A stretch of 62,579 nucleotides of DNA, filler included, from Rhabdomonas costata (taxonomy: Eukaryota), in NCBI GenBank assembly GCA_019059605.1. It is 27 parts of 27 records of this genome, joined end to end, with 100 filler letters (N's around TTAATTAATTAA, not from the genome) between each part and the next. Parts side by side here need not be neighbours in the genome. Positions count along the whole stretch, not along the records: positions 9,295 to 11,514 come from JAHMHO010004739.1; positions 11,615 to 13,837 come from JAHMHO010004740.1; positions 13,938 to 16,161 come from JAHMHO010004741.1; positions 16,262 to 18,480 come from JAHMHO010004742.1; positions 18,581 to 20,803 come from JAHMHO010004743.1; positions 20,904 to 23,124 come from JAHMHO010004744.1; positions 23,225 to 25,443 come from JAHMHO010004745.1; positions 25,544 to 27,766 come from JAHMHO010004746.1; 19 more parts are not named here. One strand, written 5' to 3'. Positions 9,295-41,016 of this stretch are shown here, one piece after another (the first letter of the stretch is position 1; each line of letters starts with the position of its first letter). Both the position numbers and the translations under genes were made by a program. The notes beneath the pieces were generated by a model, which ran no database searches, was not told where the DNA came from, and worked only from the letters and a program-made list of their open reading frames with translations.

Positions 9295-11353
9295 GGGTGG
9301 GGGGTGTTCGTGCGGCTGTTGCCGTTGCCCCCGGCGCAGGACAGCGCGAACACGGAGTCGGGCAGGCGGGCGGCGGCCTGAGAGTAAAGCAATAAGCCAA
9401 GAATGAAAAGAAAGTGAATAAACGAATCGCTCGCTGGGTCAATGCCGGCATCACATCTCAGCACCACAGGCACAGCATTGATGATCCAGAACACCCAAAA
9501 ATTGATAAAGAAGCGCTGCACAGAGCTCGTACGGATGAACGTTACAGGTCTGCCAGGAATGCAGCAGTGCAAAATGCTTGAGGACACCAGCGGTAACACG
9601 AGTGACAACGGACGACGCACGGAATGAGTGCATCTAAGCGAAGGTATATGTCCGTCTGTCGATGTGAGACTAGAGAGACCGGAGCTTGTACCTGCCACGC
9701 GGAGGACTTGTCCACAAGGGACTGGGCCGCCACAAGAAAGATGATGAAGCCGCTCTCAGTGCACAGCGGGGGCTTGTCTTCCTCACAGGACTTTTGGAAA
9801 GCCTAACAAAGAAATAGGGGACGACTTTTTGTGTGATGAAACGTACTGTTCGACAGCCCAAAGGTGCGACCCAAAAACGGCATCATTCCAAGGGGCTGAA
9901 AAAAAAACAGCGCGAAGGGTATTTGGGCTACGCGAATGAGAATATGGAAGAGTGCGCAAAGAAGAGTGGAGAGGGATGGCCCTCGCTGCCCCCCCCCCCA
10001 CATCTTCTCTTTGGAGTCAATTGTGAGTTCGGCTGCGACCGAAGGTGCTGGGGCACGCATTATATCAATATGGTCACCCCGTTGCTCTCAAGTTTCTGAT
10101 GACCTCCACTTCAACCACCGAAGGGTCATTTCTGAAGGACAAAACAATCAGACATACGGGAAGGGCGTCCTTCAGCCAGGCCCTGTCAAAGGCAATGGGC
10201 GCGACGGCGGTCACCGGGATGAACTGAATCCCGTACACGAAGAAGGGGTGATGGCCAAAGAACCTGTGACGCAAATAAGCAACAACGAGGCCCTGCCCCC
10301 ACCGTCACCCTGCAAGGCTGCGGAGAGTGCACACGATGAAATGATGGCTGCAGCAGGCAAACTCCCATCACCAGAACCCCAAGAAAAGAATTGCTTCAAA
10401 ATGGTTGCAAGCGTGCAGGTCCGGAGCCTTCCCGCAAGAAGAAAAGACTAAAAGTGGACGTTTGACATACGTCTGGTACTCAACGAGCCGCTCCCAGGCG
10501 ATCCCAATGAGGTCGTGCTTGTACTCCGGAGGATAAATATCAGAAGGAGTCTTCACCTAAGGCAGTCACCGCAAATTCAAACCGCAAACTCAATAAAAAA
10601 CGGAAAACAAGATAAAATAAGCATGCAACGGGATCTCGAGAAAAAGGGTTATCTGGGTAAGGCTGCTGGTGCTGCGGCTGCTGTGGCTGCTGCTTTGCGG
10701 CGCGCTGTTGCCGGGAAGCTTGCCTGGGTGATAATGAGCGCCGCTGAGGTTGCTGAGAAGACCGCTGGCAAGATGTACATTCATGCCGCAAAGCGGAGAG
10801 TGCACCTGGCATGCCTTTCACATCTTTCAATATCCGATATTCGTGCGCAGTTCAGGAGGTTCACTCGTGTTCACTACTGACTTGAACATCATCACCACCA
10901 CACTCGGAATATTACGCAAAATTGGTGCAGTTTCAAGAACATCAAAACGGTTTTCCAACAGAACCAAGCGGCGAACCCTTTCCCCTATTTTGTGTAGCAA
11001 CTGTATCTGAAGCGAGCTGTGCGACCTGCCAATAGGTCTGGATGCTCTGCGACTCCAGCAGGAGCAGCGTCTCCGCCGTGTACTTCAGGACAGAGTCCCG
11101 GGTGGCGGTCCCAAACAGGAACATTGCGTAGTGCGCTGTAGCAACGCAAGAGCCCATGCCAGGTCACGCCCCATACACGTAGAACAAGTAAGAAACCTGC
11201 GATCCCACTAGAGTTCTAAAGTGCGTGGGCCGAAAGTCCTCAACAAAAAAGGTGAGGGCGGGCGGCGCACCGTTGAGGGCTTCGCTGGCACTCTCCTGGT
11301 TGAGGCCATTGGGGTTCGCGACAATGCCGGAGGCCCATGAGTGACCCGCGTAC
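9295..11353 (-). CDS. Glycoside hydrolase family 81 endo-1,3-beta-glucanase, C-terminal catalytic part (6 exons)
   Basis: Exons 11353-11271, 11135-11026, 10556-10471, 10263-10158, 9802-9692 and 9377-contig end are all GT-AG and in phase: YAGHSWASG..NQESASEALN AHYAM..LESQSIQTYWQ VKTPSDIYPPEY..IGIAW..YQT FFG..YGIQFIPVT..GNSRTNT. GHSWAxG, the catalytic ExxxE and GNSRTN are GH81 motifs. Confidence 0.92.
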
Positions 11354-13109
11354 CTTTGAGTGCGGAAAGAACCGACAAAGCTCGATTTTAACATGCCCTA
11401 TCACACAGTAAAAAGGGTAAATAATTCAAGACATTTTTGCTTCTTTGTCACCAAAACTCCTCTTACCCTCCCCAAGACGAGGCTTACCCTTTTTTGTGTC
11501 GTTACCACCCCACANNNNNNNNNNNNNNNNNNNNNNNNNNNNNNNNNNNNNNNNNNNNTTAATTAATTAANNNNNNNNNNNNNNNNNNNNNNNNNNNNNN
11601 NNNNNNNNNNNNNNTTGTTGGGTGAAGGCGTCGGCCGCAACGGGCCAACAACAAGAACCGAGATAATTCGACGCGGAAGCGGGCCTAGAACCACCAACAT
11701 TGCATTTTGAGAGCGTCGAACTGGGTAGGGTTGTGCCTTTTTCCGCCAAAAAAGCGGGAAATCCCCCTTTCAGCCCCACCCATTTAAACCGAGATTTTAG
11801 GGATGCCCATTTTGGGGTCGGGTATCCCCAAAGAATCGGAAGTGGGTCGATGGAAAGATCGAGAAGGAATCGGGGATTCAAGCAAGTGATGGCTCACCGC
11901 CCAATCCAATACAGCGGCCGGACAACCCTGTTGAGTTGGACCTAATTCCTAGATGTCTTGAAAAATGGGCCTTTAAAAATTAACCAGTTGTATATTGACC
12001 GGACGTGGTCGGGAGTTTCGAAAAAAACGATGGGGTTTGGATGCGGTTTCGCGGTTGCGAAAAACAGTCGCGTGTTTGAGAATTTTCTGAGGCTCTGGGT
12101 TTTGGAGGCAAATGGCCTTGAAAAGGGGGCTTTTAGGCTTTGAAAAGGAACGGCAATGCGGTACTTCGGCCGCATGGACTAAGTCATGATTTCAAACTGC
12201 GCGGGTCCCCTAACTGGACCCCGGACGGCCCGTCGCGCACCGCGCTTGCTTGTTTTCAATCTGAAAGGCGGTGTTATGGGAGGGGCTGGCAACCCTTTTA
12301 TATCGCAGTCCCTATCTATCCCGATCGCAGGCCACCGGAGCGACGGTTTTTTTTTTAAGGACCACCAAACCATCGGTGAGACCTTTTTCGTGCTGGAGTA
12401 ATATTGTCTAAATAGGAAAAATACCATGTCAAAAACCAGTCATGTCCGTCTGATATATGAAAACTGGCCACCCGCTGTTCGAGAATACCAACCCATGAAT
12501 CTGGGTTGTTGGGCGGACAGCCGAATCCCTTCACTCGCAACGCCAGCGTTCGCGATTGTGAAACCATGGACAACACAAGCGAGCAATCCGAGGCAGTTTT
12601 GATCCAATACCAATTAATGTAAGCCGCAGAAGGCGTCTGGAGAGGACGTAAATGAACACATGCAAATCACAATCACTGAGTGGTGTGCAGGAAATGAATG
12701 GGAAAACGCTGTCCAGTTTCTGAAGTAACAGACACACAGACACAACGGCAGGCGGAAGAAGGAGAAAAAGGATGATGGAACAAACACATCGGACAGGCCT
12801 CCCACCCACTCACAGCTATGCGAAACTACAACGACAGGGAATAGATCGCACACAAAAGGCGTTGAGGAGGCAGGAGGGTTGGGATAGGAGTAAGAGAGCT
12901 ACACAAAGTTAGCGTCGAACATAGACGGAACGGAGGTGGACCTTTCAATGTTAAAAACAACTGGCAACTCGTCCGCGGCGAGGGCAGCGGATCGCGCCAA
13001 GGCCACAGCTTGCTCTGTGAGATGGTGGCATAGGCCTCCCCACATTCCTTCTTGCATAAGCCCATTTGAAACGAAAATCGCAGGTGGCGCACCTTCACGG
13101 TCCCTCTCA

Positions 13110-13763
13110 TCATGGCGATGGAGCATCCGTGACAGCAGCGGTGGGTGAAGTGGCTCCGCCCTTCTTGGGTGAAGAGCGACGAGGGCCTTGGGAAATCATC
13201 AGCTGCTTGGCCCGCTTGAGTTCCTAAAAACGTGGAGAGAATTGTGCAGCGCGCCTTTGTCGAAACGCACCGATACTCCGGAGGTCGTAGCACCAACAAA
13301 AAACCAGCTGACTCGAACCCACTTCCATCGTCTCAAATAAACACGCACGTAGATTTAAGTGAACGCAGTTGCTTGGGGAGAGAGGGGAAAAATTACCAGT
13401 GGCAAGTTTGCTTGTTATCTTCTGGTTCAAACACGTGGCCACCTTCCCAACCGCACTTCTCCGCCAAGCTAAGCAATCGGATGATGCTCTGGAACGAGTT
13501 TTGGATGCCAGCCTCTCCCAAATTACAGACCTTCAAACAACCCTAATTACCCTGAATAAAAATATTTTGGCGTGAACCTCGCGCTCGGCGGCGATCTTCA
13601 CCTCCTCCTGCTTGCTCATGTGGGCTCGGTATTCCACCATCTTAGCGCGGCGCTGCAGGTTGCCCTCCTCGACCTCCTCCGTGGGGTGCACGAACTCCAC
13701 CCCGGCCTGCACCAGCGCCTCCTCCGTGGGACGGAACATCTCAAGGGCAGCGATCATCTTGTC
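13110..13763 (-). CDS. PFR2: Paraflagellar rod protein, PFR2 type, last two exons
   Basis: Exons 13763-13578 and 13223-13110 (GT-AG) give DKMIAALEMFRPTEEALVQAGVEFVHPTEEVEEGNLQRRAKMVEYRAHMSKQEEVKIAAERE ELKRAK...SP*. This matches the PFR2 C-terminus (EEVExGN..VEYRAH..EELKR). Confidence 0.92.
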
Positions 13764-14083
13764 CTGCAAGGCCGGCAATTGGGTGCACATCGAGGAGTCA
13801 GAGCACACTCACCGCCCCCCCCCCTCCTTGAATAGGGNNNNNNNNNNNNNNNNNNNNNNNNNNNNNNNNNNNNNNNNNNNNTTAATTAATTAANNNNNNN
13901 NNNNNNNNNNNNNNNNNNNNNNNNNNNNNNNNNNNNNGTGTTGGGGGAGAAGACGGACAGTGTGGTGTGTTACACAGCGGCGGTTTGAAAGGTCATGGTC
14001 CCTTCTTTTGTCTAGGATTTCAAAATTTACGTTAGGTGTTGAAGAAATCCAAAAAGTCGTCAGGTCGTTTGTTTTCCAGAGTG

Positions 14084-14114
<31 letters not shown>

Positions 14115-14156
14115 GGCCCAGCTGTGGATAGGTAGCTTGACCTTGCGTTTTGCCAG

Positions 14157-14319
14157 GAGCTGGCACACGAGAGGCTGAGATCCGTCTCCGCTCACCGCTC
14201 GGCCCTCCGGAATCTGTATCTGCAACGTCTGGAAACGAGTCTCTGGAAACACCTTGATGTCCTGGCTGTCTTCTTCCGGAATGAGGAACACCTTGGTGTC
14301 ATGGACCGTGACCGCCGCG
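14157..14319 (+). CDS. Possible internal exon, hypothetical protein
   Basis: TTTTGCCAG acceptor, open frame ELAHERLRSVSAHRSALRNLYLQRLETSLWKHLDVLAVFF..DRDRR, G|GT donor. Confidence 0.35.
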
Positions 14320-16261
14320 GTCCGCATCCCTCGGTCTTAGTTTCCGGGTTTTCCGGGCGGAGCAGCCAGCACGGCAGCCGGTTTGTGAAAGAAGGTATTG
14401 GCGGGAAGTTGCTTGATCTTCATGATTTTGATATACCTAAAATTTTCCAAATCGCAGATGATTCTGCTGCTTGCGGGCATTTTTTGGCCGCTGGGTTTTC
14501 CATGCGCCATCTTTGCGCGGAAGAGGTCAAAGGCCACCACTCCATAAAGCCACGGCCACCGAGACAACTGCACAAGCCAAACGGGCAGTTCCCGGCCAAG
14601 CAGGTCGAAAGCAGACGGTCAGCCCGCAGGCCGACAAGAGGCCATAAAGGGCCCAATCTGGCGGGAGAGCCAAAAAGCCCGAAAAAAAGGCTCAAATGGC
14701 CCGAAACCCCCCGGGGTTTTAAACCGATGCTAGCGGTCCGTTCTTCGGCCAGCTTGCCGTTTTCCCTCTCGACCCTTTGGTGCGCCGACTGTGGCTGGCC
14801 GAAAGCCTGCGTTCAGCGTGCCGGCCTTAAAAAAGACCAAATCGGGCGTCCCGCGCTCTATATAATGACTTTAAAAAATGGGGACGGGGAAGCGGCCATA
14901 ACACGGCGTAAAGAACCTTTCCGTGGACAGGAACGGCCAACCAACTCATCCCAGGGAAAATACCGCCAAAAACGACGATCACGATAGCGAAGGCTCAAGG
15001 TCCGGTCTGGTGGTCGGATCTGGTTCAGTCTAAGAAGGCACCGGGATGAGATCACCCAGCCTTGACACGTGAGATGCCATCCTCGACGCCGAAGAGGTCC
15101 ACCCCCACAAGGAGGCTGGACGCCCGGCACACCTCCCAGGCCCGGACGTGAACGCTAGAAGGGTGAGCCTGGGGGACGCGCCCCACCACCAAACAAAAAG
15201 AGAAATAGTTGTCAATGGCCAAACCTTGTCTTTTCATTTGCGCTGCGCGAGTTCAGACTTGCCAGTATATTTTCTTGGAGGCAGGCAGGTAGGTCCGACG
15301 ACTATTCCGAAGTTCCAACATGAAGTGCTCAAGGGGTCAGCATCCACAAGTAAACAAAAGGCAATTTGAAGACAAAAACAACAAATGGCCCGAAATGACC
15401 CCAAAACTAGCTTCTGCTGTCCCTGCGTTAAGTAAGTCACAGTACTGTGAAATGTTCACGGTTCATGTCACAATTTCACAATTTCACGTTCCGACGTGAC
15501 ACTCGATCATCGCAGAAGACCCTTGCGCTGGCAAACCTTAGCATCTCATCTGTGGCTGCCTCCTGTGTCACTCAGCGTGAGCTGGGGTTTTGGGGCTGCT
15601 CTACCTGATCAACTATGGCTGATCTGAGCACGGGATCTGTTGTTCTCTGCAAAATTCTTAGCGGCAATGTGCCTGGAGCTCTCTTCACAACACTTGCGCT
15701 GGCCGGCGTCCTGACTGTGGACGAAGTGGGCCTCTTAGGTGGGGCGGGAGTGGCCCTGTCTCCTGACCCCACTAGTCTACACTCTTCTGAAATTCTCCAA
15801 CTGACCCCTTCAGCACACTTCTCTGAACCAACACCGTCTTAGCCAATTCACAATCCCTATAAAAGTGGCTCGTACTTTCAAAATAACTGCACACTCTTGA
15901 ATGAACCTGCGGCTTCGCGTTCTCCAAACTTGAACTCGGAAAAGGTGACTGCTGCCTGATCCCTGTGGAAGTCGGTCTTGGGGGTCGAGGCGGGGAGACA
16001 TCTACACTCCTGTGAAACGAGGGAATTCTGGGTCTACAGCTTCTAGACGGTGTAGGTGATCTGTAACCTCGGCCTCCTCTTCCCGTGTATCCTCGATCTC
16101 TGAAAGCCAACACAAGGATACACGGGAAGAGGAGGCCGAGGTTACAGATCACCCACACCCCNNNNNNNNNNNNNNNNNNNNNNNNNNNNNNNNNNNNNNN
16201 NNNNNTTAATTAATTAANNNNNNNNNNNNNNNNNNNNNNNNNNNNNNNNNNNNNNNNNNNN

Positions 16262-16607
16262 GGTGGTTGGGCAGCCCCCGGGGAGCCCTGTGCACCCGCA
16301 CCCCTGAGCCAGGCAGCTGCGAATCAGCGCAAGCTCTCCGCATCTCTGGACGCTGGGACCGGCATGGCTTCCGAAGACTGGGGTCCTTGGTTGAGCCGGA
16401 ACCGAGGAGGGGTGTGTTGTGGTCAAGGCGCTGTGGTGGCTGCAGGGGCACTCCGGAGAGGAGGGCAGTGGGGCAAGGGGGGCAGTTGGTGCCGGAAACA
16501 GGGGTGGCGATGCTCCTCCAGAACGTCGGGAGACAGGTCGAGGAGTGGCTGGCGGGGAGGGCTTGGAGTCAGGCTGGGCGTACCCAACCACAGCGTGTGT
16601 GGTGGCA
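16262..16607 (-). CDS. Possible Pro/Ser-rich exon, hypothetical protein
   Basis: TTTTTCAG acceptor followed by a long, open, Pro-rich frame. No homology recognised. Confidence 0.3.
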
Positions 16608-18590
16608 CTGAAAAACAAAAATACAGAAAATTCAGGGTTCACTTCTGCACCAGGGTCTGCAGTAACAAAGGTGGAAGACATCAAGAAATCTTAGAAACAG
16701 AAAAGTGAACAATGGCGCTTCAAATAATTTGCATTCTGGGCTCTTTCAGCACGTGTAAAAACAAGATAATCGGGACACCATTTTTTACTTCTCCAGGAGG
16801 CACGGGCAAACAAATCACGAAAGTACTCGATCTCCTCAAAACATAAATGGCCCCGCCTGTTCGTGCGAGGCCTGGTTACCCTACTGCTGTTCGTCGGCCG
16901 CCCCTATTTTTTGCGGTCCTCAAACAGCCGCCGAAAGGGCAGCATAAACGAATTGTCCTTTGGCGAGGTCTCTTGGAGGCCCCCCAAAAGGGTGAAATAA
17001 CTTCCCGTATACCCCGAAAGGTCAATGTTGGGATAATAAAAGAATATTTCCAAACAAATCTCCACCCTGACGCGTTCGCAGCCCCAAAACGCTACCATAT
17101 TATCATTTTAGGATCCTTTTTATTTTGAGTTCTGCCATATGAATTCGGGAAAGTAAGTTGTAAAAACAGAAATACACTTTGGTGCAAATCTACAACCAGC
17201 GTTTTCAAAAGAAAGCCACACTTGGTTCCCGGAGCGCGGGAAACCGAATGCCGGCTGGGGGATGCGATGCCGTTGACAGGGCACCAGAAGGGAGGAATGG
17301 CAACCACCATTCCTGCAAAATCCACACATGCCAGCACGGTATCACACCACTTTCAGAGATCCTCAAACATATCGCATTTTTCGAGGCGCCGTGAAAATCA
17401 GTGTGAGAGGAAAAACCACATTCAATCCGTCCACAGTAACTTGATTTAATGGCAGCAATGAAAGCAGCCGATTCCATCATCGCTCTCCTTCACGTGTATG
17501 TGTTTGTTTGTGCGTGTGTGTGCTTCCCTCAATACGCACAAACAAACCCAAAACCGATAAACAGACACACTTTCCCTAGTTAAATCGCAAAACATGCCAA
17601 CGCAGCGCGCGGATCAGGGCAAAACATCCATACCAAGGGACGAGTAGGGGCAGTGGACAAGACGCGTGGAAGTGTGCGTCTCCATTGTATGAGTGTACTG
17701 GATGGAGACGGTAAGAAGAGTAGCAAGAAGGCGAAAGTTGGGCAGCAGCTCTGAGAAAAAGGGTCCAACGGGAACAAAACATACACCCCTGCGGCGGAAA
17801 CGTCTCGCATAGTAATGCTTGGCTATGCCCCCTCGCCACCTCCCCCACGCCGCCTCCCACTCGCAACCTCACTGAACGGTCCCGATGCATTTTTTGGAGG
17901 CGGGGTGGGTAAAATGGTTTAACGACGTTGAACGGGTACCGGTGGCAGCTGATCTTCGCCCCTTTTACATGGCACCTCCTGGAAACCGTTCATCGCCCTT
18001 CCCGGGTTTAATGTTGTTAAAAATCGGACCGTCATCGAAGCGGCAGGCGGGCGTTAACACCCTAGAAAACTTCCTTTGGACACCAAGAGGACATCTTTAT
18101 GACCAATAGATTAACTCACTTCACCCATTGTTTAGCTTTTGTGCCATGGCCGTTGACAGAAGCAGGAGCGTTTCATCGAGAGGTGTTGTCGTCGCCGTCG
18201 AGAAAAGCATTACCGAGGGGTGACACGACTTTAAAAACACGGGCCACTCAAAAAATCAACCAATTCACAACTAATAATTACATTCTCAGACGTCCGCAAA
18301 TCGCTTCGGTTTCGGACATTAAACGGATAGTAATAAAGTGAACAGCTCCTCAGATAATTGGCGACGCAGCGCCACCGGTTCAAGCCCTTCGTTCAGGACA
18401 ATAGGAAGGCATACCTCAAACTATCGCACAAGCGGTGCTAAAAAAGCACGCGAATGTGGATAAACCGGATACCCAAAAAANNNNNNNNNNNNNNNNNNNN
18501 NNNNNNNNNNNNNNNNNNNNNNNNTTAATTAATTAANNNNNNNNNNNNNNNNNNNNNNNNNNNNNNNNNNNNNNNNNNNNGTGGTGGGGG

Positions 18591-18772
18591 GTGAGGGGTG
18601 AGGCAATGCATAAGTATGCAAAGCTGTATGTCCGCGAAGCATTGGGGAACGATAGAGTGAGGTGCATGCATACAGGACAATGAATTCGCGGGGTGAGGGG
18701 TGAGGCAGTGCGTGAGTATGCAAAGCTGTATGTCCGCGAAGCATTGGGGAACGATAGAGTGAGGTGCATGCA
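18591..18772. repeat. Imperfect 102-bp-period tandem repeat (about 1.8 copies visible, truncated by the contig start)
   Basis: GTGAGGGGTGAGGCA..AAGCTGTATGTCCGCGAAGCATTGGGGAACGATAGAGTGAGGTGCATGCAT starts at 18591 and again at 18693, with a few substitutions. Confidence 0.9.
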
Positions 18773-18811
18773 TCCATACCATCCACCGCAAGTGGGCGGA
18801 GAGAGAGACAC

Positions 18812-23114: not shown

Positions 23115-23415
23115 CTGAATCTAANNNNNNNNNNNNNNNNNNNNNNNNNNNNNNNNNNNNNNNNNNNNTTAATTAATTAANNNNNNNNNNNNNNNNNNNN
23201 NNNNNNNNNNNNNNNNNNNNNNNNCTATGCCTTGATGCCTTGGTGTTTTTGACAGCCTGCTATGTTGGCCCATTATTTCGGAAGTGCTACCTTTGATCCG
23301 ATTCTGTCGAGGCCTTTCCGTCGCACACCACAGTTTTCCCTACAATTATGCTTCAATTGTTAGGCCATCTCTGCTGTGGAGGTTGGCGGGTGGTTTACGG
23401 GTGTGTGGGCTGCAG

Positions 23416-25443: not shown

Positions 25444-28240
25444 NNNNNNNNNNNNNNNNNNNNNNNNNNNNNNNNNNNNNNNNNNNNTTAATTAATTAAN
25501 NNNNNNNNNNNNNNNNNNNNNNNNNNNNNNNNNNNNNNNNNNNGGTGTGTGGTGTGATGTGTATATTTGTGTGCGATTCTTGTGGCGCAGGGTGTGTGTT
25601 GCGTTTAGTATGTGTGCACTGTATGTGTGCATGATTTTCTGTGTGCGCTTTTGTGTGTTTTTGTGTTGTTAATGTAGTTTTTCTGTTGTTTGATTTTGTG
25701 TTGAATGCGTGCATTGAATTTTTGTATGCTGTATGTACTATTATTTACTGAATTGGTTTTTACACGTGGTAAATGTGGACAAGTGACGAGTTCTGTTGTG
25801 CATATATAAAGTTGTTTACGCGTATCATTTTCTTAGTCAACCGTGACAATCTTATTTATCCATTTGGTGCGTATTTTGTGTGACCTAAAAGCAAATTATT
25901 AGTAGTATTTGCATACACGTTATCGCTAAAATGTTGAAGAGCGTGGATGCGAGTGACTGTACATGAACCCTAGAATGATTTCGTGACATATAAAGAGGCA
26001 TCGAATGCAGTAGCTACGACATAAGTAAACAATAGCATCGCGAGAACATACAAATATTGAGCTGAAGTGCAAATTTTACATAAACAAACATCGCATTTAG
26101 TATGAATATGTTTCTGATGTACAGTTTGGTAATCAGAGCGTGTCTACATGATCATATATGCTGACGTCGTTGAATTGAATTGTTAACCAAGAAGTGGCTT
26201 TGGACCTTGTGGATGATGTACTATTATGTGTGGTAATCATAATGTTGGTATGTCGTTGTTATTTTTATCACGTTTTTGCGATCTGTTGTTACTCAGCAAT
26301 ATCCCAGCACCATGTATACACTATTGCGGTTTGTATAAAACCTACTTAATAACATTTTTTGTCTGTGCGTGTGGTTGGTAGTAGCCTGGTGTCAACGCCA
26401 GTTTGTCTGCGCTGTTTGTAAACAGTATGATCCGAGCTACTATTGTGTTTATGCTGCAATGCTGATGACGATCAAGGAATGACAAAATACCCAATAGATA
26501 CAAACCTGGCTACAGACCTGGACACTCTACGCATATGTATATGCTATAATATAAAAATATATTTGGCATACATTCAGAAGTGAACTTTTTTTTAGGAAAC
26601 ATGCGCATTGCATACCAACACCCTGCGAGATGAAATATCCTGATCTATGTGGAATGTGTGTTGAAATATAAACGCTCCAACTTTGCTTGTGCGTTTGTGC
26701 ATTCTATTTTTGCTTGTATTGCTTCTGTGTGAAATGTGTAAGCAAACGCCTTGGTAGATGCAAGATATCCTAAACCGCACCTCCACGCTATCAAAAGGGT
26801 GTTTAAATCAGAGATCAATTCCAGCAGAAGCACCCAGCGCTAAACTCATCATGGGAATAATGTCGTGTGAAGAGAAGCTTTTTCAGCTTCCTTTATATGG
26901 GGCCGATTTGCAACTGGAGGAACCCAGGGTTTTGCATTCTTGCTATCATGTGGAAGTCTCTGTTCTCTAGATTTGCCTCTGCCTCTGAGTGAAATGCAAA
27001 TTGGTATTATAAATTTGACGCTTTACTAGTTCGAATCCCGAAAATATGAAGAATTGGAAGTCAACACCATAGCGTATAGTCAGTGCTGGCCGCTTCGCGT
27101 ACAGTCGACCATTTCATTTCGACTGGAACCGGGTGTAACCGTGCTTGAATATCCTTGATTATGATGTCTGTTGAGTGTCACTGGTAAAATGGGAATAAAC
27201 AGGCTGAAAGAGTCTCCGGGTATGCCAAGGGCTTTGCGGAAAACGGTAGTCACAGAGTCTTTAAAATCTTTCATGTGCGAACACTTTTCTTTTGCGGTGC
27301 CCTAGCCGACCCATCAACACTGCACCTAGGAGTTTCCAAAGAACAGTTTGCATTTGTGTGCTTTCGGCTCGAGAACTTTTCATTCAAGGTTTTCATCATT
27401 TGTGTGAACGCCCCGAAACAGTCCATACACAGAAACGCTTTGATAACATAGAGCATTGCCAAGCTCGTCATTTTCATATTAAGGCAAGGAGCCGCGGGTT
27501 TCAACAGGAATCGTTTAGATCATCCGTGACAGCTTTGGTAAGGTTGGCAATGTTGCGGAGAAGGGGCGGCCACGGCGGCCGAAACCTGTCGCACACCATT
27601 TCCAGATCGCGCGGGACATTCGCTTTCCCCATTTTTGCCATCACAACTAACTCTCTTCCAGCCTTGTGGTTTCTTTGTTCGCCCCCGCGCCTTTGTTGAA
27701 ATTTTTTTGGGGAAGTTCCTCCTTTAGAATCTGCTTCCTCGAACCCCTTTGCTGGCCCCCAAAACCNNNNNNNNNNNNNNNNNNNNNNNNNNNNNNNNNN
27801 NNNNNNNNNNTTAATTAATTAANNNNNNNNNNNNNNNNNNNNNNNNNNNNNNNNNNNNNNNNNNNNGTTTTTGTGTGAGGGCCGCCGACGGCCACCAATG
27901 ACTCATACGGCACGATCATAAGTGGCCGTCGGCGGCCCTCATTACAAAATCGCTGTGTTGAACAAAATCGTGTGTGTTTAGCCCAAGGCACGTTGGCCAC
28001 AGTGAAGATGATGCCTGATCATCTGGCCATCCCGTCTTCTGCGATGGTGAGCTGTGTATGTGCCCAAAGTCCGCTGGTAGGTGTGTTGCGTTCGGTTCGA
28101 GCGAACAATAGCTCACAAAAAGAAAAAGGTCAAGAATACGACAAATACACATAATGGCAAAAATGAATGAAATTCCGGTGGGTTGCTTCTGGAAAATTCT
28201 TCCCTCTCTTCATGACGCATGACGAAGGGGCGCTTGAGAC

Positions 28241-29784
28241 CTGCATTGAACGCAGACGCCGGCACGGAGGGCCGGATGCATGGAGGTGGCACCACCATGT
28301 GGGACACGATCAAGTCCCGGGGGTGGGAAAGCGACGGCTTCATGTCCAGCAGCTCGATATCCTCGAGGGGGATGCGGTTGAACAGCTGCAAGCACTCCTG
28401 CGCAAGCGATGCGGGATGACGAAACAACGAGCAAACAGAGCAAGTTTTTTTTACGGCAGACACAGCGGGTACACAGAGAACCCCGCCGTGTGACGCACCC
28501 AAGATATCCAACTTGACCCGATTTTCCACTTTTTCCCAATCGCATTATTTCGGCAACGCGCGGAGCAACAGGAGACAAAGCGCAGCTGGAAGTGACTTTC
28601 AACCACCGCAAGCAGAACAATTACCAAACGCGGGCTCGCGCCCATGCTATTCCTTTTGGATCGCCTAAGAACACAATCTGGAGCGGCAGATGCCCTGCGC
28701 ATGCCAATGGAGTAAGGTCATGCTGAGCCTTGTGGATGTGCGGGCGAAGCTCAGGGTTGGCCTCCAGGGGGTTGGTTAGCTGGGCGTCAAAGGTTTCCTT
28801 GAGCTCCTCGTTCTTCGAAAGCTGCGTCAGACCCCATCCCCAATGAATCACTTCCGATGAAAAAAAAAAGGAGCCTGAGCCCACTTTAAACTCATCACCA
28901 AAGTCAACACCGGAACCTCGCGTGAAAGTACGCTACGGCCCTTGCAAGAGAAAAGCGTTATAGAATCTCGTCGTCTGAATTGCCGAATTCCATGAATGAT
29001 TAATTTTTAATACTCAGATTTCAAGAAGAATATTCTAAATAGATCAAAAACGAGAACGCACACACCGAGCGCTCATGGCAGTCATTAACCAGCGGTTATA
29101 AACAGTGGGGGCTCAACAATCTTGTTGTGATAAATGCAGCCTATACCATTGAAGTTTCACCAAATTACGCCCGCACATACGCTACTTCCTCTGCTCTATT
29201 ATAGAAACGACGAATTCTCAGCACATATCTCAGTCAGAAGCCACGTACAAACGGACCCCCCCCCTGGCCCATTCTGCACACGATTACCAGGGATGTTCTA
29301 ACGGTTCGAGGTTTGACTTATGAATGAATTCAACTGAACGTAATCCTTTTTTCGACGGTGACCCGGATTCCAGACACTTTGCTGACCAAACATCCGACAT
29401 CTGACATCCGTCCGAAGAGAGTGTTTCAAGGGGAAAACCTTTCACAAGTTGGCCGGGAGTGCTGCGCCTCACCCATGTTGGGAGACTTTCTATCTAGTAA
29501 CACGCGCATCGCCCTCCCTAAAGGGAGTCCACAGCCCACCCTCCAGCATCCCAAGGTCTTGCACCCTACCCAGGACAAATGCCACTTCTTTGGCCCCTTC
29601 GCAGACAACAAAAAACAAGAGCGAGAAGCGAACGCCATATGCCTTGTAGCGTTCATGGCAGAGCCTGAGGTGAGGGAGCTTCCGGACATTGCCGTTGACC
29701 GCCCTGCACCACGGGCAGGTCACAACCTTCTTGCACTCCGCCTCAACCTTCTTCCCAATCGCAGCCCGGGCTGTTGAGTGCAGC
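28241..29784 (-). CDS. RPC1: RNA polymerase III largest subunit, N-terminal clamp region (3 exons)
   Basis: Exons 29784-29643, 28821-28705 and 28397-28241 give [85 protein letters not shown], colinear with RPC1/POLR3A. Both introns are GC-AG. Confidence 0.92.
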
Positions 29785-31245: not shown

Positions 31246-31360
31246 TCGTCGGTGAGGCCTCTGCAGAGGAGGGTTCCGGGGGCATCTCCCGCAGCTTTGC
31301 GAACATGTTGTTGAAGCGTCGCTTGTCCTTCTGGTCCTGCTCGCGAATCTTCTGCGTCAG
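31246..31360 (-). CDS. C-terminal helix exon of a TPR-containing immunophilin (FKBP62/FKBP4/Cyp40-like)
   Basis: CACAG|LTQKIREQDQKDKRRFNNMFAKLREMPPEPSS. The KxxY/FxNMFxKL motif follows the TPR in large FKBPs. A GTGAGT donor follows. Confidence 0.6.
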
Positions 31361-32842: not shown

Positions 32843-34535
32843 GGGACATCGACGCGGACGGCCGGCTGCACGTGGACATCGACGTGGGCCCCACCCCCAC
32901 CGACCCCACCGCTGGTGCGGTGGCAGGCGCGGGGGGCAGTGTCTCAGCAACCCGACAGACCCATGCGTCGCAGTCTTCCCTCGCCGACTCGGGGCCTGGG
33001 CCCTCGTGGGTTCGCCTGAGTGCCTTTCGTGGGCGTGGGGAGGGGTAGAGGAGCGGGTAGAGGAGCTCTCACATCTGCTTCTGCTCGGACTGGTGCAACC
33101 AACTCACTTCCAGCTGCTGCTCTTTGGGCAATAGGAGGGAAGGGCGTGAGTGATGGTGGTAAGAAATGGAGAGCGATCTTTGAGCAATGGCTGCCTTTCT
33201 CAAGCTGTCGATGGGAGGTGGGTGGGGTGCCCTCTGCATGCCCTGCCCAAGTCTTCATTGTGTGCTTGACCGACCCACTTGTGAAAATAGGGTGGGGTGG
33301 GGAACTGCTTGTGCGTGACTGTTCTGCTGTCCTCACCTTGGTTTGGTGTAATAGAAGGGCGCGTGCTATCCCAGATTGTGTACACTCCCTGCCTGCGTGC
33401 GTGCCTGCCTACCGCTCATCTTGTACTCTGTGTTGAAAGCAGCCCCCTATGGTGCCTTTCGTTCACCTCCTCAAAATGGCTGGAAGAAGACTCCCCGATG
33501 TCTCCCTGGCTTTTGAAGGAGCTTTTCCGAAGGCCCTAACGCAACAAAAACTGCCCTGCTGCAGCATTCTCCCATGTTACCATGTCGGTCGCGATGCTTC
33601 AAAAAGAGATCTGGAGAAGTTGAAGTGAAGATAAACGACCAAACCAATTTTACTCCTTCCCTGAACAAAAACGATGCCTGATGGGGGCGCGCGTGGCAAA
33701 TTTTACTGAAGCTGCGGTTTGAAGGGAAAGTCCCGCCATGTCGATGCCACAAGTAAGGATGGGGCTCCCCATATCAAAAAACAACACGACGAAAAGCAAA
33801 GCCAGAGCCCATGCCAGCAACCAAAAACATTGCGAATGATTTGGACGCGCGTTCTGAACTCTTCTGATTGAGTTCGGAAAGTTTGATTGTTCCGGGATGT
33901 GAACGTTTGTGTGTTTATGCCAGTAATCTGGTTTCCTTCTTGCTTCGAGTGAACAACCACCCATGGGCATTGTGGTCATTCTCCTTGGCAAATCATTTGC
34001 TCAGGCAAATTGGAGAAGCAAGCCTTTCTAACTGATGACTGACCCGGAGGGGTTGAGTGGAGCCGCCCTCCGTCGCATTCCCGTACTCCAGGCCTTTCCC
34101 AACCCCTGATTGTCGTGCCTGCGTTCTCTTCAGTTGGAATTCTTTTTCCTTTGGGATTCTCCGTTTCGTTCTTTTCTCGTCTCTTCCCGGTCCTCTGTAC
34201 TATCCTCATCTCATCTCTCCTCTCTTCTCCTTTTCCACTTTCTGACCAACCTCGACCCCAGTCGGACTCTCTCGGGACGTTCTTTAACCCGTGAGAGCCT
34301 GCCGCTTCCTACCAATGTCGACGCAGCCGTCGCCCCCGGTCGCTCCCCAAGGTCCCCGCCTGGCTGACCTGTTTCAGCCCCGGCCGGACGCCATCCCGGT
34401 GATTGACCCGGATTTGAAGCTCCATGGCCGGGTCTGGGTGCCCCATACCATGGTGGCCAACACCAGCGGGGTGGAGCGCTACCGCGCGGCACACCCCTAT
34501 CCCCCCTCGCTGTGCATCCTGTTCCAGAGCGGAAA
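32843..34535 (+). CDS. Hypothetical protein, several candidate exons
   Basis: Candidate exons 32843-~33005 (GDIDADGRLHVDIDVGPTP..) and 34378-~34535 (PRPDAIPVIDPDLKLHGRVWVPHTMVANTSGVERYRAAHPYP) have YAG acceptors and coding-like GC3. Joins are unresolved. Confidence 0.35.
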
Positions 34536-34999
34536 GTACGCCTCTATCTCAGGGAAGAGGGGGAGGGGAGCGTCTTGTATTTTTTGGCTGAGTTTCCGTG
34601 TTTCCGTGCTGCTTCGGCAGCCTCTTGTGAAGTGTTGCGTGTGGAAAAGCCAGGTCGACCGGTGGCTATGCGACAGTAGGTAACAACGTTAATGGGCGCT
34701 TAGGGCGTGGGCTTGGGCCGAAGCACGAATACNNNNNNNNNNNNNNNNNNNNNNNNNNNNNNNNNNNNNNNNNNNNTTAATTAATTAANNNNNNNNNNNN
34801 NNNNNNNNNNNNNNNNNNNNNNNNNNNNNNNNGTGGTTTTTTTTAGTTGGGGCTTTTTTCCATTGTGTCTTCACCAACATTTTGTCGCTGAGTTCTTCCC
34901 AGTCTGGAAACTGAATAATCGACTATCTCTCTGACCAGAGAAAACGTGTAATTTTGAGTGTCTGCCCTGTGTGGTGCTTTGTGTATTTGCTCACCACAG

Positions 35000-36341
35000 C
35001 TACGACACTGACGGAGATGGCGTGCTGAGCTTGCAGCAGTTCGAGGGCGCCATGAGGGACCTGGGGCTGTTCGAGAGCGAGGCAGTGGCGCTGTACTTGC
35101 ATTGCGACGAGGACAGCTCTGGAAAGGTGCTCGGGGGCTCCCTTGGAATTGGTTTGCAGTTTTGAGGTCGCGGTAAATCACTCAGTCGTGGTTTGTTTGG
35201 GGTGCCAGAAGTGAAACACAACTGGCGGCAACTGGCAAGCGATCTCATGATTCACACATCTATCGCTATCACGCAGGCTTCGTGTGTTTGTGTGTGTGGC
35301 ATACTTGTTGAATGCCCAAAAACGAGAAAATCGGTGGTCTGGATGACGCAGAAGCTAAATAAGACACAAGAAGAAATCCACCACAACCCCATATGAGAGC
35401 GTGGGGAATGCGCCACGGTGCCAGCCACTCCTGTGTTCAGAAGAAGCCGGGTTGACATTCCAGGCAGAAAAGGAGGAAGTCGACGAGCTACCGAAACTAC
35501 CGAAAGAAAGAAAGAAGAGTCAGATCAAGGGATGGGCGGGAAAACAAAATATCGAGGAGCACCTCGAGCCAAGAAACAGCGAGGGCTGAAGAGATCTGCT
35601 TAAACCACACAGATCAGCATAGATGGATTCAGAACGGTCCACAAGTCCCGTGCCGTGGCCTCGAGTGCTTGGGACGGCGCCACGATTGGAGCTCGCCATG
35701 GTCAGTAGGACATGACCTGAGGATCGCAGACATGAGAAGATTGAACTTGAGCAGCAAGCGCAGAGTGGGCCAGCCCAGAGTATTGCAGCTTCCCAGAACC
35801 GTGATTTAATGCCCCATTGCGGCTTACCAAAAACATCTGCCCAGCAGAAAAGATGCCGTTGTATTGGGGTGTGCGTCAGGTTCAGCTGGCGAATTTCATG
35901 AAGCACTTCCACATCCGGGATTACGTCGACGTGGAGGCGGAGGAAATCCAGGCGCTCATCCGCAAGATTGCAGACGGGGTGCACAACTGGTCTGGAGGTA
36001 TCAACTTCCCCATTTTTCACTCCACTCTCTCCTGGGTGTTTTGGGGGGTAGCCAATTCACCCCGCGTGCGGATTGCAAATTAGGTGGTAGGTAGTTATTC
36101 TGAAATGAGTTGGTCGGAGGATTTCCATCGTAGTTGTTGATTGCAGCATCATAAGCTCCCGACCCCCCTCCCCCGCCCTCAACTGCAGGAAACGTGGAGC
36201 CGGTGTTCCAGCAGTTTGACGCGGAGCGGCGGGGCACGTTGGATCTGTTCGCCTTCACGGAAGTCATCAACCACATCTGCGGGCGGGACATCCCCAGCCT
36301 GGAGATCGAGGCCGTGTTCAGCCACTTCGCAGGCGACGAAG
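35000..36341 (+). CDS. Multi-EF-hand calcium-binding protein (3 exons)
   Basis: Exons 35000-35126, 35880-35997 and 36189-36341 are in phase and GT-AG. EF loops: YDTDGDGVLSLQQF, CDEDSSGKVQLANF, FDAERRGTLDLFAF. Confidence 0.85.
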
Positions 36342-37185
36342 GTAAGAACCCCTGCGCCTGTACTCGCTTCCTCCTCATATTTTTAATAGCCCGTGTGTCG
36401 CTCTTCCCACAAACACACAGTCTTTCCTTCAGCCACAGCGAACAGCGCACATGCTGCTTCTGTGTTCAGGGCTACTTCTTCCATGTAGAGCTTCTTGTGC
36501 TGCCGTCTTTCTTCCTCTTTGTGTGTCGTTGCTGATCTCCGCCGCTGCGCTGTTGTTCCATTTCCTGCCCCTCGTGCTCTTCTCGTTCTCGACCCATTCT
36601 CCGACTCTGCCCTTTTCCATAAATCGCGAATGCCCTGTCAAAGGGCTTATTTTTTCGCCTTACCACTTCTCCGACCTCGCATGTGGGCCGTTTTTTTTTG
36701 CATTCCACTCTGTTCTCCCATTGCTTTTTTGTAGGTTTCCTTCGGAAACGTTTGTTATCTCCCCGCACCGCACGAGAGAAGAGACAGCGAGTGGCCATGT
36801 CTGTGGATGGTGGGAGGGCGTGACCTCCAGCACCGCGCGAGAGAAGAGACAGCGCGTTAACACGACTCAGGAGGGAAGGTCTCAAAGTTTTACAGGTGTC
36901 CTCCTAACTCGGGGGGGCCCACACAGCTTGGGGCGTGGAGGCGCCGAAACGGCCAGGGGTGGGGAGTGGCACCAAACAAAAAGTGGAAGAAAACACTGTG
37001 CTGCGGAAAGAGTCCAAAACATCAGTTTGTAGTGGTTGTGCCGAACCCAAACCCNNNNNNNNNNNNNNNNNNNNNNNNNNNNNNNNNNNNNNNNNNNNTT
37101 AATTAATTAANNNNNNNNNNNNNNNNNNNNNNNNNNNNNNNNNNNNNNNNNNNNGTGTGGGGGTGGGCGATAGCCTCTAAATTAG

Positions 37186-39376
37186 GTCAGCCTGACTATA
37201 CCCAGACGCTTGACTTCAACGTCCAAGACGTGCCGACCCCTGACCTTCTCACTGGGGCATGGTTTCGGGTCCCAAGGTTCGGTCGGTTTGCACAAGTGTG
37301 TATTATTAGCCAGAGAGGCGAGAGATTTTTGTGCGATTTATGTCCCATCTCTTTGTAAGCATCGTTTTTGCCATGCATCTTCCTGATTTTTCTGGTCGGT
37401 GGATACGATTAACTCGTGCCGCATTAAGCAAGGTTACTAGAACACACGGCATCAATGGCGGAGAATAGTTTTTGCGATGATTTCCATCCTTCTTCCACAG
37501 CAGTGCGTCCTTCATAGCCTCTTTTTGTGGTTGTGCGGGAGGGCAGTGGCGCGTGACAACAAAGAACAAATGCTGGTGTAAAAGAGATGGGAATACCCGC
37601 AGTTCAAGCTTTCTGCACCACATCTCTCATGGCCGACCTTTGCCGGTTCACCTTTCGCCGGAAATGTGAATGAGAACGTGTTGGTGGAGGTTGGCGTTAA
37701 CCAAACGAGCGAAATGGGAGCGTGAGCGTAAGAGACAGGAGACGAAACTGGTATCTCTCCTGCTCCCACAGGTCAGTCCTGTGCCTTCGCCAGCTGCCCT
37801 GTGCCTTCGTCGTTTCCTGATATTCTCACGGTTTGTCCGCAGAATCCCTGCACCGCGGTAGATGAGTGCTGCACCGAAGGTTCTTAACTCGCGTTCGTTT
37901 TTTTGTTTCATGTCCTTTTTCCTTTTCAGTGCTCCAGCACCAGCAGCTTCTTGTGGCGGAGGGTGCGTCATCCTTTTTGACCGATAGAACTTTTTTCGGC
38001 AGGTTTTATTTAGTAGTCGTGGGCGTGCTTTCGAAGACCTGACCCACCTTCCGTCCTTTTCACTCTCTGTTCACTCACCGTCTTTGTGTGTCTCAGTGTG
38101 CAACATCACTATCTTCGGGAGCTTTGAGATTCACTCTGAGGTCAATGGCCTGTACATCCCATGCGGGCTGCAGAACTGGCGCCCGGTATACTGCCAGAAC
38201 ACCTCTAAGCTTTTGCTCTGGTTCGGCTCCTTTGGGTGGCGTATATGCCGATCCCAGGACGACCCCGGCTCTTTGGTGTGCAACGGGGATCCTTGCTTGG
38301 CCCAGAGTAGTGGCTTCTCGCCCACTCCTGATCTGCTGACCACCGCGTGGTTTGTTCTGATCGATGAAACTGCTTCTGCTCGGGACGACGAGATGCGATC
38401 AATCTGCTCAGGTGTTTTTTCAGGTTTCCGCACCCGTTGCAGAGGCGGCTTTGGTTTTCGCTTTCAATTTTCCGATGCAATTTGCGTAGCCAGATTTCCC
38501 GCGTCAGCTTCTGCTTTGCTCTCGAAATATTTTCCCCAAGCACACTCTCCCACCTCTACGAGCCAACCGATTGTTGGATGTATTGAGTTGAGGCACGTAG
38601 AATAGAAAGATGTAGGTGAAGCGGCATCGGACAAAAGAACAAATTGAACGCGTTCTGTAGAAACTTGTCAAAACGTGTGAGGTTCTAATGTTAGGAGCTT
38701 TCCCCATTTTTTGATCTGTTGGTTATTGGTTACAATAGACTAAATCACGTCACTGCGGCACAGGCATAGTAATTCTTGCAGCGTAGTTCAGCAACAAACA
38801 GACAATCTACAAAAACCCGATGAGGGCGAAGCCGAAGCAGGCTGGGGTGGGGGGTTCTGTCCCAGATCCTGGTTTTACCCTGCTGAAGTTTCGGTCGACG
38901 TTATCTGTCTGTGATCTCTCTTCGTGGACCGTTCCAAATACCAGCCCGTGCGAGGGGAACTGGCTGGGCGTGTCCTGCGACACCGACCTTCGAGTGGTGG
39001 GCCTTGACCTTTCCGGCAAGAAGTGCTTTGGGTTTCTGAATGAGCACGCGTTCATTCTTCTAGGTCAACTACCTCTCCAAACATTAAACCTCAGCTCGAA
39101 TAGGTTTGAAGGCTTTGAGAGTTTGAAATTTTTGCCCCCAACTCTGAGAAACTTTTCCCTGTCTGCGAATCCGCTTCTCACGGGTAGCCTTGATCTGAGC
39201 GTTCTACCTGCCCAGCTGGAAACCCTAGACCTGAGCCAGTGCAAGTTTTATGGCCCGGTGGACCTCAGTCGTCTCCCAGCCTCGGTGCGTAACCTCAGGC
39301 TTTCTTCGAATATGTTCGTCGGGACCGTGGATTTCTCCCAGCTTCCTTCGGGCCTGCAAACGCTCGACCACCACCC
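37186..39376 (+). CDS. Extracellular LRRNT-LRR surface protein (GP46/PSA-like, plant-type LRR) preceded by a repeated Cys/Trp module
   Basis: Exons 38097-38411 and 38866-contig end join in phase 1. LRRNT LSSWT..SPCEGNWLGVSCD is followed by ~23-aa repeats LxxLxLSxNxFxGxxDxSxLP. An upstream exon near 37186-37281 (boundaries uncertain) shares PTPDLLTxAWF. Confidence 0.8.
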
Positions 39377-39499
39377 NNNNNNNNNNNNNNNNNNNNNNNN
39401 NNNNNNNNNNNNNNNNNNNNTTAATTAATTAANNNNNNNNNNNNNNNNNNNNNNNNNNNNNNNNNNNNNNNNNNNNGGGGTGGGGTGTGGGAAAGGCCC

Positions 39500-41016
39500 C
39501 CGGGTTGGTGTGGTCTCGTGCCCCGTCTTCGGCCGCCCCGACGCCGCCCGGGCCGGTGTGCTGCTGTGTGTGCCTGCGGGCAAGCCCGAGCACGTGGACC
39601 GGGTGGAGCCCTTCCTTAGGCCCTTCGCGAAAAAGGGCATCGTCCGTGTGGGCGAGGTATGGTGTGTGCCCCAAGAGAGGAGAGCGCACTGCGGTCAGAG
39701 ATCTTCCATTCATGGTATCGGAATGCTGCGGTGATCGAGTGCGGTAATGCTTTCAATTTTATTTACGAGGAGCTTCCGTTTGTTACCGAACCCGAGGGAG
39801 AGGGCTCCCAAAAGGTTCTTGAAAGGACTAGTGTTATCTTTCTTTCTGGGTGTAGGCGTCGCGGTGCTGGATGCGCCGACAAACGTCTTTCACATTTACT
39901 ATGCATAATACAAACAAACATGGCCCTGACCTGCTTCGGCGTGGCCCTCTTCTACCGTTTGGCAGTATTTGCCTGTTCTTTCTTCCCTTGTGATGGGAAC
40001 CCGCGACATCATCACCGACCGGTTATTTAGCCTCAGGAACACTCTGTTTTCCCTTTTTCATTTCGATTGCATTCGGAAAATTGCGTTCAAGCGAGGAAAT
40101 ACCTTTACACCGCCCTTAGCGCAACCTTCGGATGGTGGGAACCCGGAGTATGAGTCTCACCGGTGGGCGAGACTTTCCCACAGTCCATGTTCAAGATGTT
40201 TCGGTGGTTTCCTTTTTGTCACCATTCAGGATCCAGGGCAAGCTAATGTCTTGAAGCTTACGGGGAACTTCATGATCGCCAGCTCTATTGAGATGCTCTC
40301 CGAGGCGATGACCTTGGGGGAGAGGAACGGCGTCAGCCGTGACACCTTCATGAGCCTGGTGAAGGCCTTCTTTCCCGTCCCCGTGTTCGAGGGCTACGGG
40401 GGTCGTATTGCCAAAGATGACTTCGCGTATGTGCTCCTTTTCTGTTTCTCCGGCCCTCCCTGTGTATCCACCACCGGTCACTTTGACTTTTCGGTTCCCC
40501 GAGGAAGCGCTGGTGCATCCCCCCCCTCCAACTATATCATGTATATCATTCACTGGTGTCTAAGGATGTCATTGTACGCGTGGCTCGTGGCTCAGTGCTC
40601 AAGTTATTACACTAAGCTGAGTGGTAGTGCTGTAAATCAGAAAATTAGAGCGACGCGTGATGTTGAGGGCAAAACCCGACCGAACCCGGACAGCTTTTGA
40701 CATCAAGCTCAAAAAAGTACTCGGAAAACTTTGTATCTTTGTGGTCTTTCGCCTTGGTGGTGATTATGCGTTCTCTGACTGCAACGCTGCCTTTGTGAAA
40801 TTCTTCAGGGCTGGTGGGGGTTTCACGGTGACCCTGGGTCAGAAAGATGTTGGGCACATGCAGACTCTAGCGCGAGCCTCGGGGACGTACCTCCCCACAG
40901 CAGACCTTGTAATGAGCCACCTGGCGCAAGCGCAGGAGGCCGGCCGAGGGGACTGGGACTGGGCCGCCGTGGCCACCGTTGTTCGGGAGAAGTCCAGCAT
41001 CCCAACGAAGCAGTAG
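39500..41016 (+). CDS. Beta-hydroxyacid dehydrogenase (3-hydroxyisobutyrate DH / 6PGD NAD-binding family), 3' part
   Basis: Exons ~39500-39656, 40230-40426 and 40809-41016 (stop) give SCPVFGRPDAARAG..VGE DPGQANVLKLTGNFMIASSIEMLSEA..GFTVTLGQKDV..GRGDWDWAAV, with the catalytic KLxxN motif. Confidence 0.92.

Follow-up and report, generated by a model that had tools for sequence, protein, structure and literature searches.

The genes recognised in the window, a stretch of 62,579 bases of Rhabdomonas costata contigs, appear to mark the 5′ ends of their introns by a donor signal centred on AG/GT (a slash denotes the exon–intron border), and where the exon does not end in G the donor has the complete hexamer GTATGT instead, a reading of the sequence to which we give a probability of about 0.55. 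Among the 19 donors placed on protein evidence, 16 have G as the last exon base (position -1), followed by GT in 13 cases, GC in two and GA in one, and the other three have C at -1 and all read GTATGT. This is probably the known trade-off between exon end and intron start, extended to a new lineage on the strength of a small sample; 3 of the 19 donors are of the decisive type, and the observation is offered as a lead rather than a result.

Introns were placed from protein evidence only, either by alignment with homologues or by the continuity of a Pfam profile, and the rule that introns run from GT, GC, or GA to AG was applied on top of the protein alignment at the junctions. Pfam scans covered 150 open reading frames (ORFs) of at least 107 amino acids across the whole window, 423 ORFs of at least 30 amino acids in pieces 5–18, 138 ORFs in pieces 5, 20, 21, 23, 25, and 26, and, at E values up to 10, 11 ORFs that were trimmed or scanned again. 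Full-length relatives were aligned back for three genes (paraflagellar rod, RNA polymerase largest subunit, and an IFT172-like gene), and four genes (GH81, a HIBADH-like dehydrogenase, malic enzyme, and a VPS4-like AAA ATPase) were placed by exon-to-exon Pfam coordinates; the yield was 15 complete introns in these seven genes and four further donors. Where alternative junctions existed, the model that kept the length of two homologues was chosen. A self-trained codon-usage scan, with enumeration of frame-compatible GT/GC-AG pairs, was used for exon finding only, and donors that came from these alone were left uncounted. The G/GY motif occurs by chance once per 30 nucleotides (nt) on either strand, and among the exon pairs listed there are 41 to 81 frame-keeping GT/GC-AG pairs per exon pair; G/GY donors lacking homology support therefore carry little weight.

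In the donors with exon-final G (n = 16), A occupies -2 in 11, and the positions past GT are only loosely constrained: +3 is A in five, C in four, G in five, and T in two; +4 is C in seven, T in seven, and G in two, with no A; +5 is G in seven, C in four, A in three, and T in two; and +6 is C in nine, T in four, A in two, and G in one. After correction, +4 carries 0.45 bit of information and +6 carries 0.27 bit, and the values for +3 and +5 are about zero. The hexamers concerned are GTGCGC (twice), GTCGCA, GTTCAC, GTCTCA, GTATGG, GTGTAC, GTGCGT, GTCGCT, GTTTGC, GTACCC, GTCTGC, GTGCTC, GCATAT, GCATGC, and GAACTT. Finding G at -1 in 16 of 19 donors against a G content of 26% has a binomial probability of 1.8e-07, a high frequency of G at this position being common in eukaryotes, and no donor of the 19 has A at +4 (P = 0.0046, given the base composition). 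When +3 to +6 are compared with ATGT, the three donors without exon-final G match at four of four positions, and those with it match at none (three donors), one (six), two (four), or three (three). The exact probability that the three non-G donors are the top ATGT matches is 1/969 (n = 19), calculated post hoc.

The trade-off between exon-final G and intron start had been proposed in an earlier note on this DNA, and it is visible in the homology-checked donors. All three GTATGT donors named there lie where it had put them, each after an exon-final C (10157..10152, minus strand; 10470..10465, minus strand; 40427..40432, plus strand). Its view that most donors end the exon in G is borne out by 16 of 19 in our own set, although its count of 28 in 31 is not reproducible, its donor list not being given; likewise, the statement that non-G donors all read GTATGT stands at three of three, but no further non-G donor appeared among the nine donors outside the interval that it treated. 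Degeneracy at +3 to +6 was a nearly right description, if slightly overstated, +4 being C or T in 14 of 16, never A, and +6 C or T in 13 of 16. Two of the weak hexamers quoted as following G, ACG/GTGCGC at 11270 (minus strand) and GAG/GTTCAC at 13577 (minus strand), are fixed by homology or Pfam, and others occur after G at CGG/GTGTTT (24977, plus strand), CAG/GTGTTT (38412, plus strand), and CAG/GTTTCC (38424, plus strand). Donors beginning GC or GA after an exon-final G, also claimed, are present as two GC donors in the RNA polymerase gene and one GA donor in the IFT172-like gene, and the remark that U at +4 is yeast-like agrees with the lack of A at +4.

Two of the three GTATGT donors belong to the GH81 gene. 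One, CCC/GTATGT (10157..10152, minus strand), follows exon D, which matches the Glyco_hydro81C profile at 261–292 (E = 0.034), the only family reported for this exon at E up to 10; its probable intron spans 9803–10157 (minus strand), has GT-AG borders, and is in frame with an exon starting at 9802. A putative exon E (~9840–9897) was rejected, since it offers no frame-consistent donor and exon D joins the 9802 exon directly with GT-AG borders and in frame. The other donor opens the intron between exons C and D, GAC/GTATGT...TCACAG/G (10264..10470, minus strand), with both flanking exons supported by Pfam; exon C, of 28 residues, accounts for the profile positions left between exon B (192–233) and exon D (from 261). 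The two remaining introns of this gene follow G and were placed on the Pfam profile: CAG/GTCGCA...CCTTAG/G between exons B and C (10557..11025, minus strand), and ACG/GTGCGC...CTACAG/C between exons A and B (11136..11270, minus strand; profile 165–193, then 192–233), the latter having no alternative GT/GC/GA-AG pair within 9 nt. A word-index search with exon B returned no GH81 homologues, the ORFs containing exons C and D matched no GH81 protein in the PDB, and Pfam at E up to 10 did not report the family in seven downstream ORFs; exons C and F and the last exon accordingly rest on profile spacing and codon statistics.

The third GTATGT donor is that of intron 2 in the HIBADH-like dehydrogenase, CGC/GTATGT...CTTCAG/G (40427..40808, plus strand), where the NAD_binding_11 profile is matched at 1–44 before the intron (the exon runs on) and at 67–121 after it. 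Intron 1 of the same gene, GAG/GTATGG...ATTCAG/G (39657..40229, plus strand), lies between NAD_binding_2 112–157 and NAD_binding_11 from 1.

Borders of the 15 complete introns are GT-AG in 12, GC-AG in two, and GA-AG in one, all ending in AG; the exon-final base is G in 12 of 15 and the intron-final base is G in all 15. In the 20 nt before the AG, T exceeds C in 13 introns, equals it in one, and is exceeded by it in one, with C+T making up 8 to 17 of the 20. On these features the introns would be ordinary spliceosomal ones, mostly GT-AG with some GC-AG and rarely GA-AG. They could instead be of the nonconventional or intermediate kind, with the ends of the weak-donor introns brought together by pairing and unread by U1, U5, and U6, and only the GTATGT introns spliceosomal, but we regard this as very unlikely. 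The euglenid identity of the organism lends it some plausibility, given that 16,151 of 28,337 introns in Euglena gracilis are nonconventional (PMC11170887). The lineage, the weakly conserved 5′ ends, and the end-pairing potential of some introns are shared with euglenid nonconventional and intermediate introns (PMC4770533, PMC11170887). Joined 10-nt ends fold better when they come from the same intron than when mismatched (-3.03 vs -2.01 kcal/mol, permutation p = 0.0066), and one GC-AG intron reaches -10 kcal/mol; for positions +4 to +6 with -8 to -6, all three pairs form in 2 of 15 introns as against 1.9% of mismatched pairs, with a mean of 1.33 pairs vs 1.06 in mismatched controls. However, some of these end folds use the artificial U7 spacer, and the end-pairing energy is zero in 6 of 15 introns, which resembles the 35% among E. 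gracilis GT-AG introns and not the ~3% among nonconventional ones (PMC11170887). All 15 introns end in AG and 14 begin with GT or GC, and CCAGG was found at +3 to +7 in none of the 15. Unlike euglenid nonconventional introns, those described here have GT/GC/GA-AG borders, an exon-final G where a pyrimidine would be expected, and neither CCAGG nor CCTG (PMC4770533, PMC11170887). An assignment of the weak donors to E. gracilis-type nonconventional introns was thus rejected, every homology-fixed junction allowing a GT/GC/GA-AG solution, with exon-final G and with the CCAGG/CCTG and end-pairing features missing; what looked like a CCAGG...CCTG pair in the IFT172-like gene proved to lie outside the intron when homologues had fixed the junction.

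Within an ordinary spliceosomal setting, exon end and intron start might still be independent, G being the usual majority base at -1 and GTATGT the best donor, and their pairing a product of small numbers and of a recognition bias without RNA data, in that a non-G donor may be accepted only when its intron side is unmistakable; this account is possible, though it seems to us the less likely one. Several observations favour it and weigh against the trade-off. There are only three non-G donors, and it was on them that the hypothesis was originally formed. Between 10152 and 40432, the interval treated in the earlier note, lie 10 of the 19 donors, seven with G and three with C at -1, and the nine outside it (IFT172-like, malic enzyme, and AAA ATPase) all have G, so that the G class is replicated and the non-G half is not. 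The exon downstream of donor 10157 is backed by codon statistics and not by homology. Alternative GT/GC/GA-AG pairs within 9 nt, entailing indels of 1–6 residues, exist for 12 of the 15 introns, among them GGC/GTTCGC, which would replace the GC donor at 29642 (+3 residues), and CTT/GCCTTT, which would replace the GA donor at 3966 (+2), and the abundance of G/GY motifs and of frame-keeping pairs noted above acts in the same direction. There are, moreover, unverified candidate donors with A at -1, namely GTGAGT at ~31247 (minus strand), GTGTAT at ~23001 (minus strand), and GTAAAG at ~23575 (plus strand); if these are used, the non-G class would be wider than GTATGT, yet still strong on the intron side. 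Against independence, the junctions were fixed first by alignment or profile, a procedure in which a weak non-G GT donor was acceptable and none appeared, and the exact probability of 1/969 applies; the same dependence is also established in many eukaryotes (PMC11732430). Alternatively, the trade-off may be real but read by U1 alone, with A at -2 and G at -1 lengthening the exon-side duplex when the intron side pairs poorly, which we consider doubtful. It was the original reading of the 5′/3′ compensation (PMC11732430), and GUAUG would pair fully with the stretch of E. gracilis U1 that pairs with GUGUG (PMC11170887), but with +3 to +6 close to random, U1 would form only some four pairs (-2 to +2) in the majority of introns, and according to a review U1 still pairs with both classes, which differ more clearly in their U5 and U6 potentials (PMC11732430). 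The present data do not distinguish a reading by U1 alone from one by U5 and U6.

Nearly all of the donor signal in this set lies in AG/GT, with weak preferences past GT for a pyrimidine at +4, G at +5, and a pyrimidine at +6. Taken in the U5/U6 sense, the AG/GT-centred signal with GTATGT as its counterpart would mean that either of two pairings can fix the cut site by itself, that of the exon end with U5 loop 1 (and U1) or that of the intron start with U1 and with the ACAGA box of U6. Full pairing of GUAUG with an E. gracilis-like U1 would be expected if the U1 of this organism is similar, and a U6 lacking N6-methyladenosine (m6A) would be consistent with there being no A at +4.

The two-class split of 5′ splice sites is reportedly due to a study from 2022. 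It separates AG//GUNNN sites, which have strong potential for pairing with U5 loop 1, from NN//GURAG sites, which have strong potential for the U6 ACAGA box, and it recast a 5′/3′ compensation (-1 vs +5) that had first been seen in human genes (PMC11732430). The donors described here resemble this model in that those with G at -1 tolerate any intron start and the others carry the full motif, the two sides rarely failing together. They depart from it in that the intron-side class is GUAUGU, with U at +4, rather than GURAG, and +4 is never A. Moreover, the exon-side class here comprises 16 of 19 donors, with a pyrimidine at +3 in 6 of the 16, which to our knowledge is rare elsewhere, and it includes GC and GA donors without a fixed G at +5. 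In Saccharomyces cerevisiae, nearly all donors are GUAUGU, with U at +4 and an unconserved exon end; the same hexamer constitutes a minority class here. Euglenids fall within Excavata. This is the only sampled eukaryote group in which METTL16 orthologues were not recovered, and in yeasts A at +4 goes with METTL16 and U at +4 with its absence (PMC10581693). An unmethylated U6 is plausible in this organism because A is missing from +4 in all 19 donors and METTL16 was undetected in the Excavata sampled (PMC10581693). The +4U species studied so far, which are yeasts, have few introns and do not show two classes (PMC11732430), unlike the intron-rich organism described here.

Among euglenids, the nearest comparison is with the conventional introns of E. 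gracilis, whose GT-AG consensus, GTGTG, pairs with U1 at every one of its five bases, one of the pairs being a G-U wobble (PMC11170887). Both sets have GT-AG and GC-AG borders, carry T at +4, and favour G at +5; E. gracilis has the GTGTG start and C-rich tracts before the acceptor (PMC11170887), and the introns in the window have an unconstrained +3 and T-rich tracts in 13 of 15. In the sections covered here, the E. gracilis intron paper presents intron-side logos only, with no exon positions and none conditioned on -1 (PMC11170887), and the R. costata draft paper treats border dinucleotides only, in contrast to the -1 and +3 to +6 positions analysed here (PMC8219788). Among the papers listed by one literature search, none deals, as judged by title and abstract opening, with the dependence between exon end and intron start in euglenids, a weak sign that it is undescribed there.

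The two-class view has been built on animals, plants, and fungi, and there +4U accompanies the loss of METTL16, a low intron count, and a single narrow consensus (PMC11732430, PMC10581693). An intron-rich lineage without A at +4 and with both classes would thus be a new data point. If the trade-off is real, it would shed light on the reading of a complex intron set whose U6 side is weak. In practical terms, a donor model for euglenid gene finders would weight -2 and -1 and disregard +3 to +6 unless -1 is other than G. The most far-reaching version, in which an intron-rich euglenid makes its 5′ choice almost entirely from the exon end (AG/GU, read by U5 loop 1), with ~85% of donors lacking an intron consensus, pyrimidines at +3 and GC and GA starts tolerated, GUAUGU kept as a back-up class, and a U6 left unmethylated where METTL16 is lacking, seems to us rather improbable as a whole. 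Were it to hold, the organism would put the U5/U6 two-class model to a natural test beyond fungi, plants, and animals, and would break the rule by which lineages with +4U are poor in introns and keep to one tight consensus.

The remaining donors of the G class come from five genes. The paraflagellar rod gene has one intron, GAG/GTTCAC...TTTTAG/G (13224..13577, minus strand), which is fixed by homologues that read ...AAERE and then E(V/I/L)KRAKQL over the junction. The gene for the largest subunit of RNA polymerase contains two GC-AG introns: AAG/GCATAT...ACGCAG/C (28822..29642, minus strand), placed by length agreement with two homologues, and TTG/GCATGC...GCGCAG/G (28398..28704, minus strand), placed by homologues and having no GT alternative within 9 nt. 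These adjoining introns both begin GCAT, and the 5′ and 3′ ends of the one at 28398–28704 can pair with each other at -10 kcal/mol in the end-joining fold. A further donor of this gene, CAG/GTCTCA (28235..28240, minus strand), has its following exon off the contig.

Four introns were placed in the IFT172-like gene, all on the minus strand. Intron 1, AAG/GTACCC...TCAAAG/G (4091..4305), and intron 3, TTG/GTCTGC...GGGCAG/G (2975..3654), follow from homologue alignment. Intron 2 is the probable GA-AG intron, CAG/GAACTT...CTGCAG/G (3792..3966), for which two homologues fix the length of AMDNREYERAC; AGG occurs at both of its borders, allowing four placements that yield the same mRNA, only one of which ends in AG. 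Intron 4, CAG/GTGCTC...TTGCAG/A (2673..2810), shows up only as a 46-residue gap relative to four homologues. It is 138 nt long, in frame, free of stops, and rich in a CACT/CTCA microsatellite, and it lies within a 264-codon ORF; if retained, it would add 46 residues and leave the frame intact.

In the malic enzyme gene, the intron ACG/GTGTAC...CCACAG/C (51581..52772, minus strand) separates positions 1–40 of the Pfam malic profile from 41–86, and a second donor reads AAG/GTGCGT (51446..51451, minus strand). For the VPS4-like AAA ATPase, on the plus strand, the Pfam AAA profile match 45–122 ends at the donor of intron 1, AAG/GTCGCT...CTTTAG/G (55989..56447), and AAA_lid_3 begins just past the acceptor of intron 2, CCG/GTGCGC...CCCAAG/G (56544..57123), which has no alternative pair within 9 nt. 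A (GT)n microsatellite at 57090–57123 stands directly before the acceptor CCCAAG, in the place of the expected pyrimidine tract. The last donor of this gene, CAG/GTTTGC (57255..57260), is the least certain of the 19.

The window consists of 27 unrelated contigs of 2217–2225 bp each, separated by 26 artificial linkers of 100 bases (44 N, TTAATTAATTAA, and 44 N; e.g., 2224–2323 and 11515..11614). The 12-mer TTAATTAATTAA gives a stop in all six frames, and features spanning a linker are artefacts. Hence, the interval 10152–40432 is not the single stretch as which the earlier note had treated it, covering as it does 14 unrelated contigs and the 100-base linkers between them. G+C content ranges from 41 to 55% among contigs, most lying at 50–54%. 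An Rfam scan of the window returned no family, hence no small nuclear RNA, and a tRNA scan of the window returned none.

A minus-strand ORF at 13536–13808 matches the paraflagellar rod family PF05149 (Pfam, E = 4e-18), a family restricted to Euglenozoa; within this group, kinetoplastids are intron-poor. Among 179 matches of the encoded protein, the best, at 82–88% identity, are from transcriptomes of euglenids, Eutreptiella among them; trypanosomatid matches are ~75% identical, and the sole match labelled R. costata is 66% identical. The RNA polymerase exon is 47–74% identical to its two matches. Together, the paraflagellar rod gene and the intron-rich genes point to a euglenid host. The published R. 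costata draft has a GC content of 51.6% and an N50 of 1194 bp, with GT/AG borders in 29 of 29 hand-checked complete introns and only seven likely nonconventional introns, and its supplement holds 9461 GT-AG, 634 GC-AG, and 185 GA-AG rows, the GA rows probably being listed twice (PMC8219788). The contigs of the window resemble this draft in GC content (~52%), in the 1–2 kb size class of contigs, and in being intron-rich with mostly GT-AG and a minority of GC-AG and GA-AG introns (PMC8219788). As a nuclear euglenid genome, they fit better with the features published for R. costata than with those of E. gracilis.

Recognised genes have a T-rich sense strand, and the sign of the per-contig AT skew agrees with the gene strand wherever homology fixed it (pieces 2, 5, 6, 13, 18, 23, and 25, the last having a skew close to zero). 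The sole long intron-free coding stretch in the window is an uninterrupted ORF of 538 codons at 54009–55622 (plus strand), which encodes leucine-rich repeats (LRR_6, E = 7.6e-59). Another ORF, at 38787–39374 (plus strand), contains a plant-type N-terminal domain of leucine-rich repeat proteins (LRRNT_2, E = 2.2e-07), followed by such repeats. Directly upstream of a cyclase exon that starts GGYEVKT, positions 48106–48150 (plus strand) hold the in-frame stretch RRVHNLLDAYHPHK. It resembles the end of the real upstream cyclase exon, EVHNTVVRELIYRFG (47700–47747, plus strand), and aligns to the cyclase profile in Pfam; RRVHNLLDAYHPHK may represent either an alternative exon or a duplicate that has decayed.

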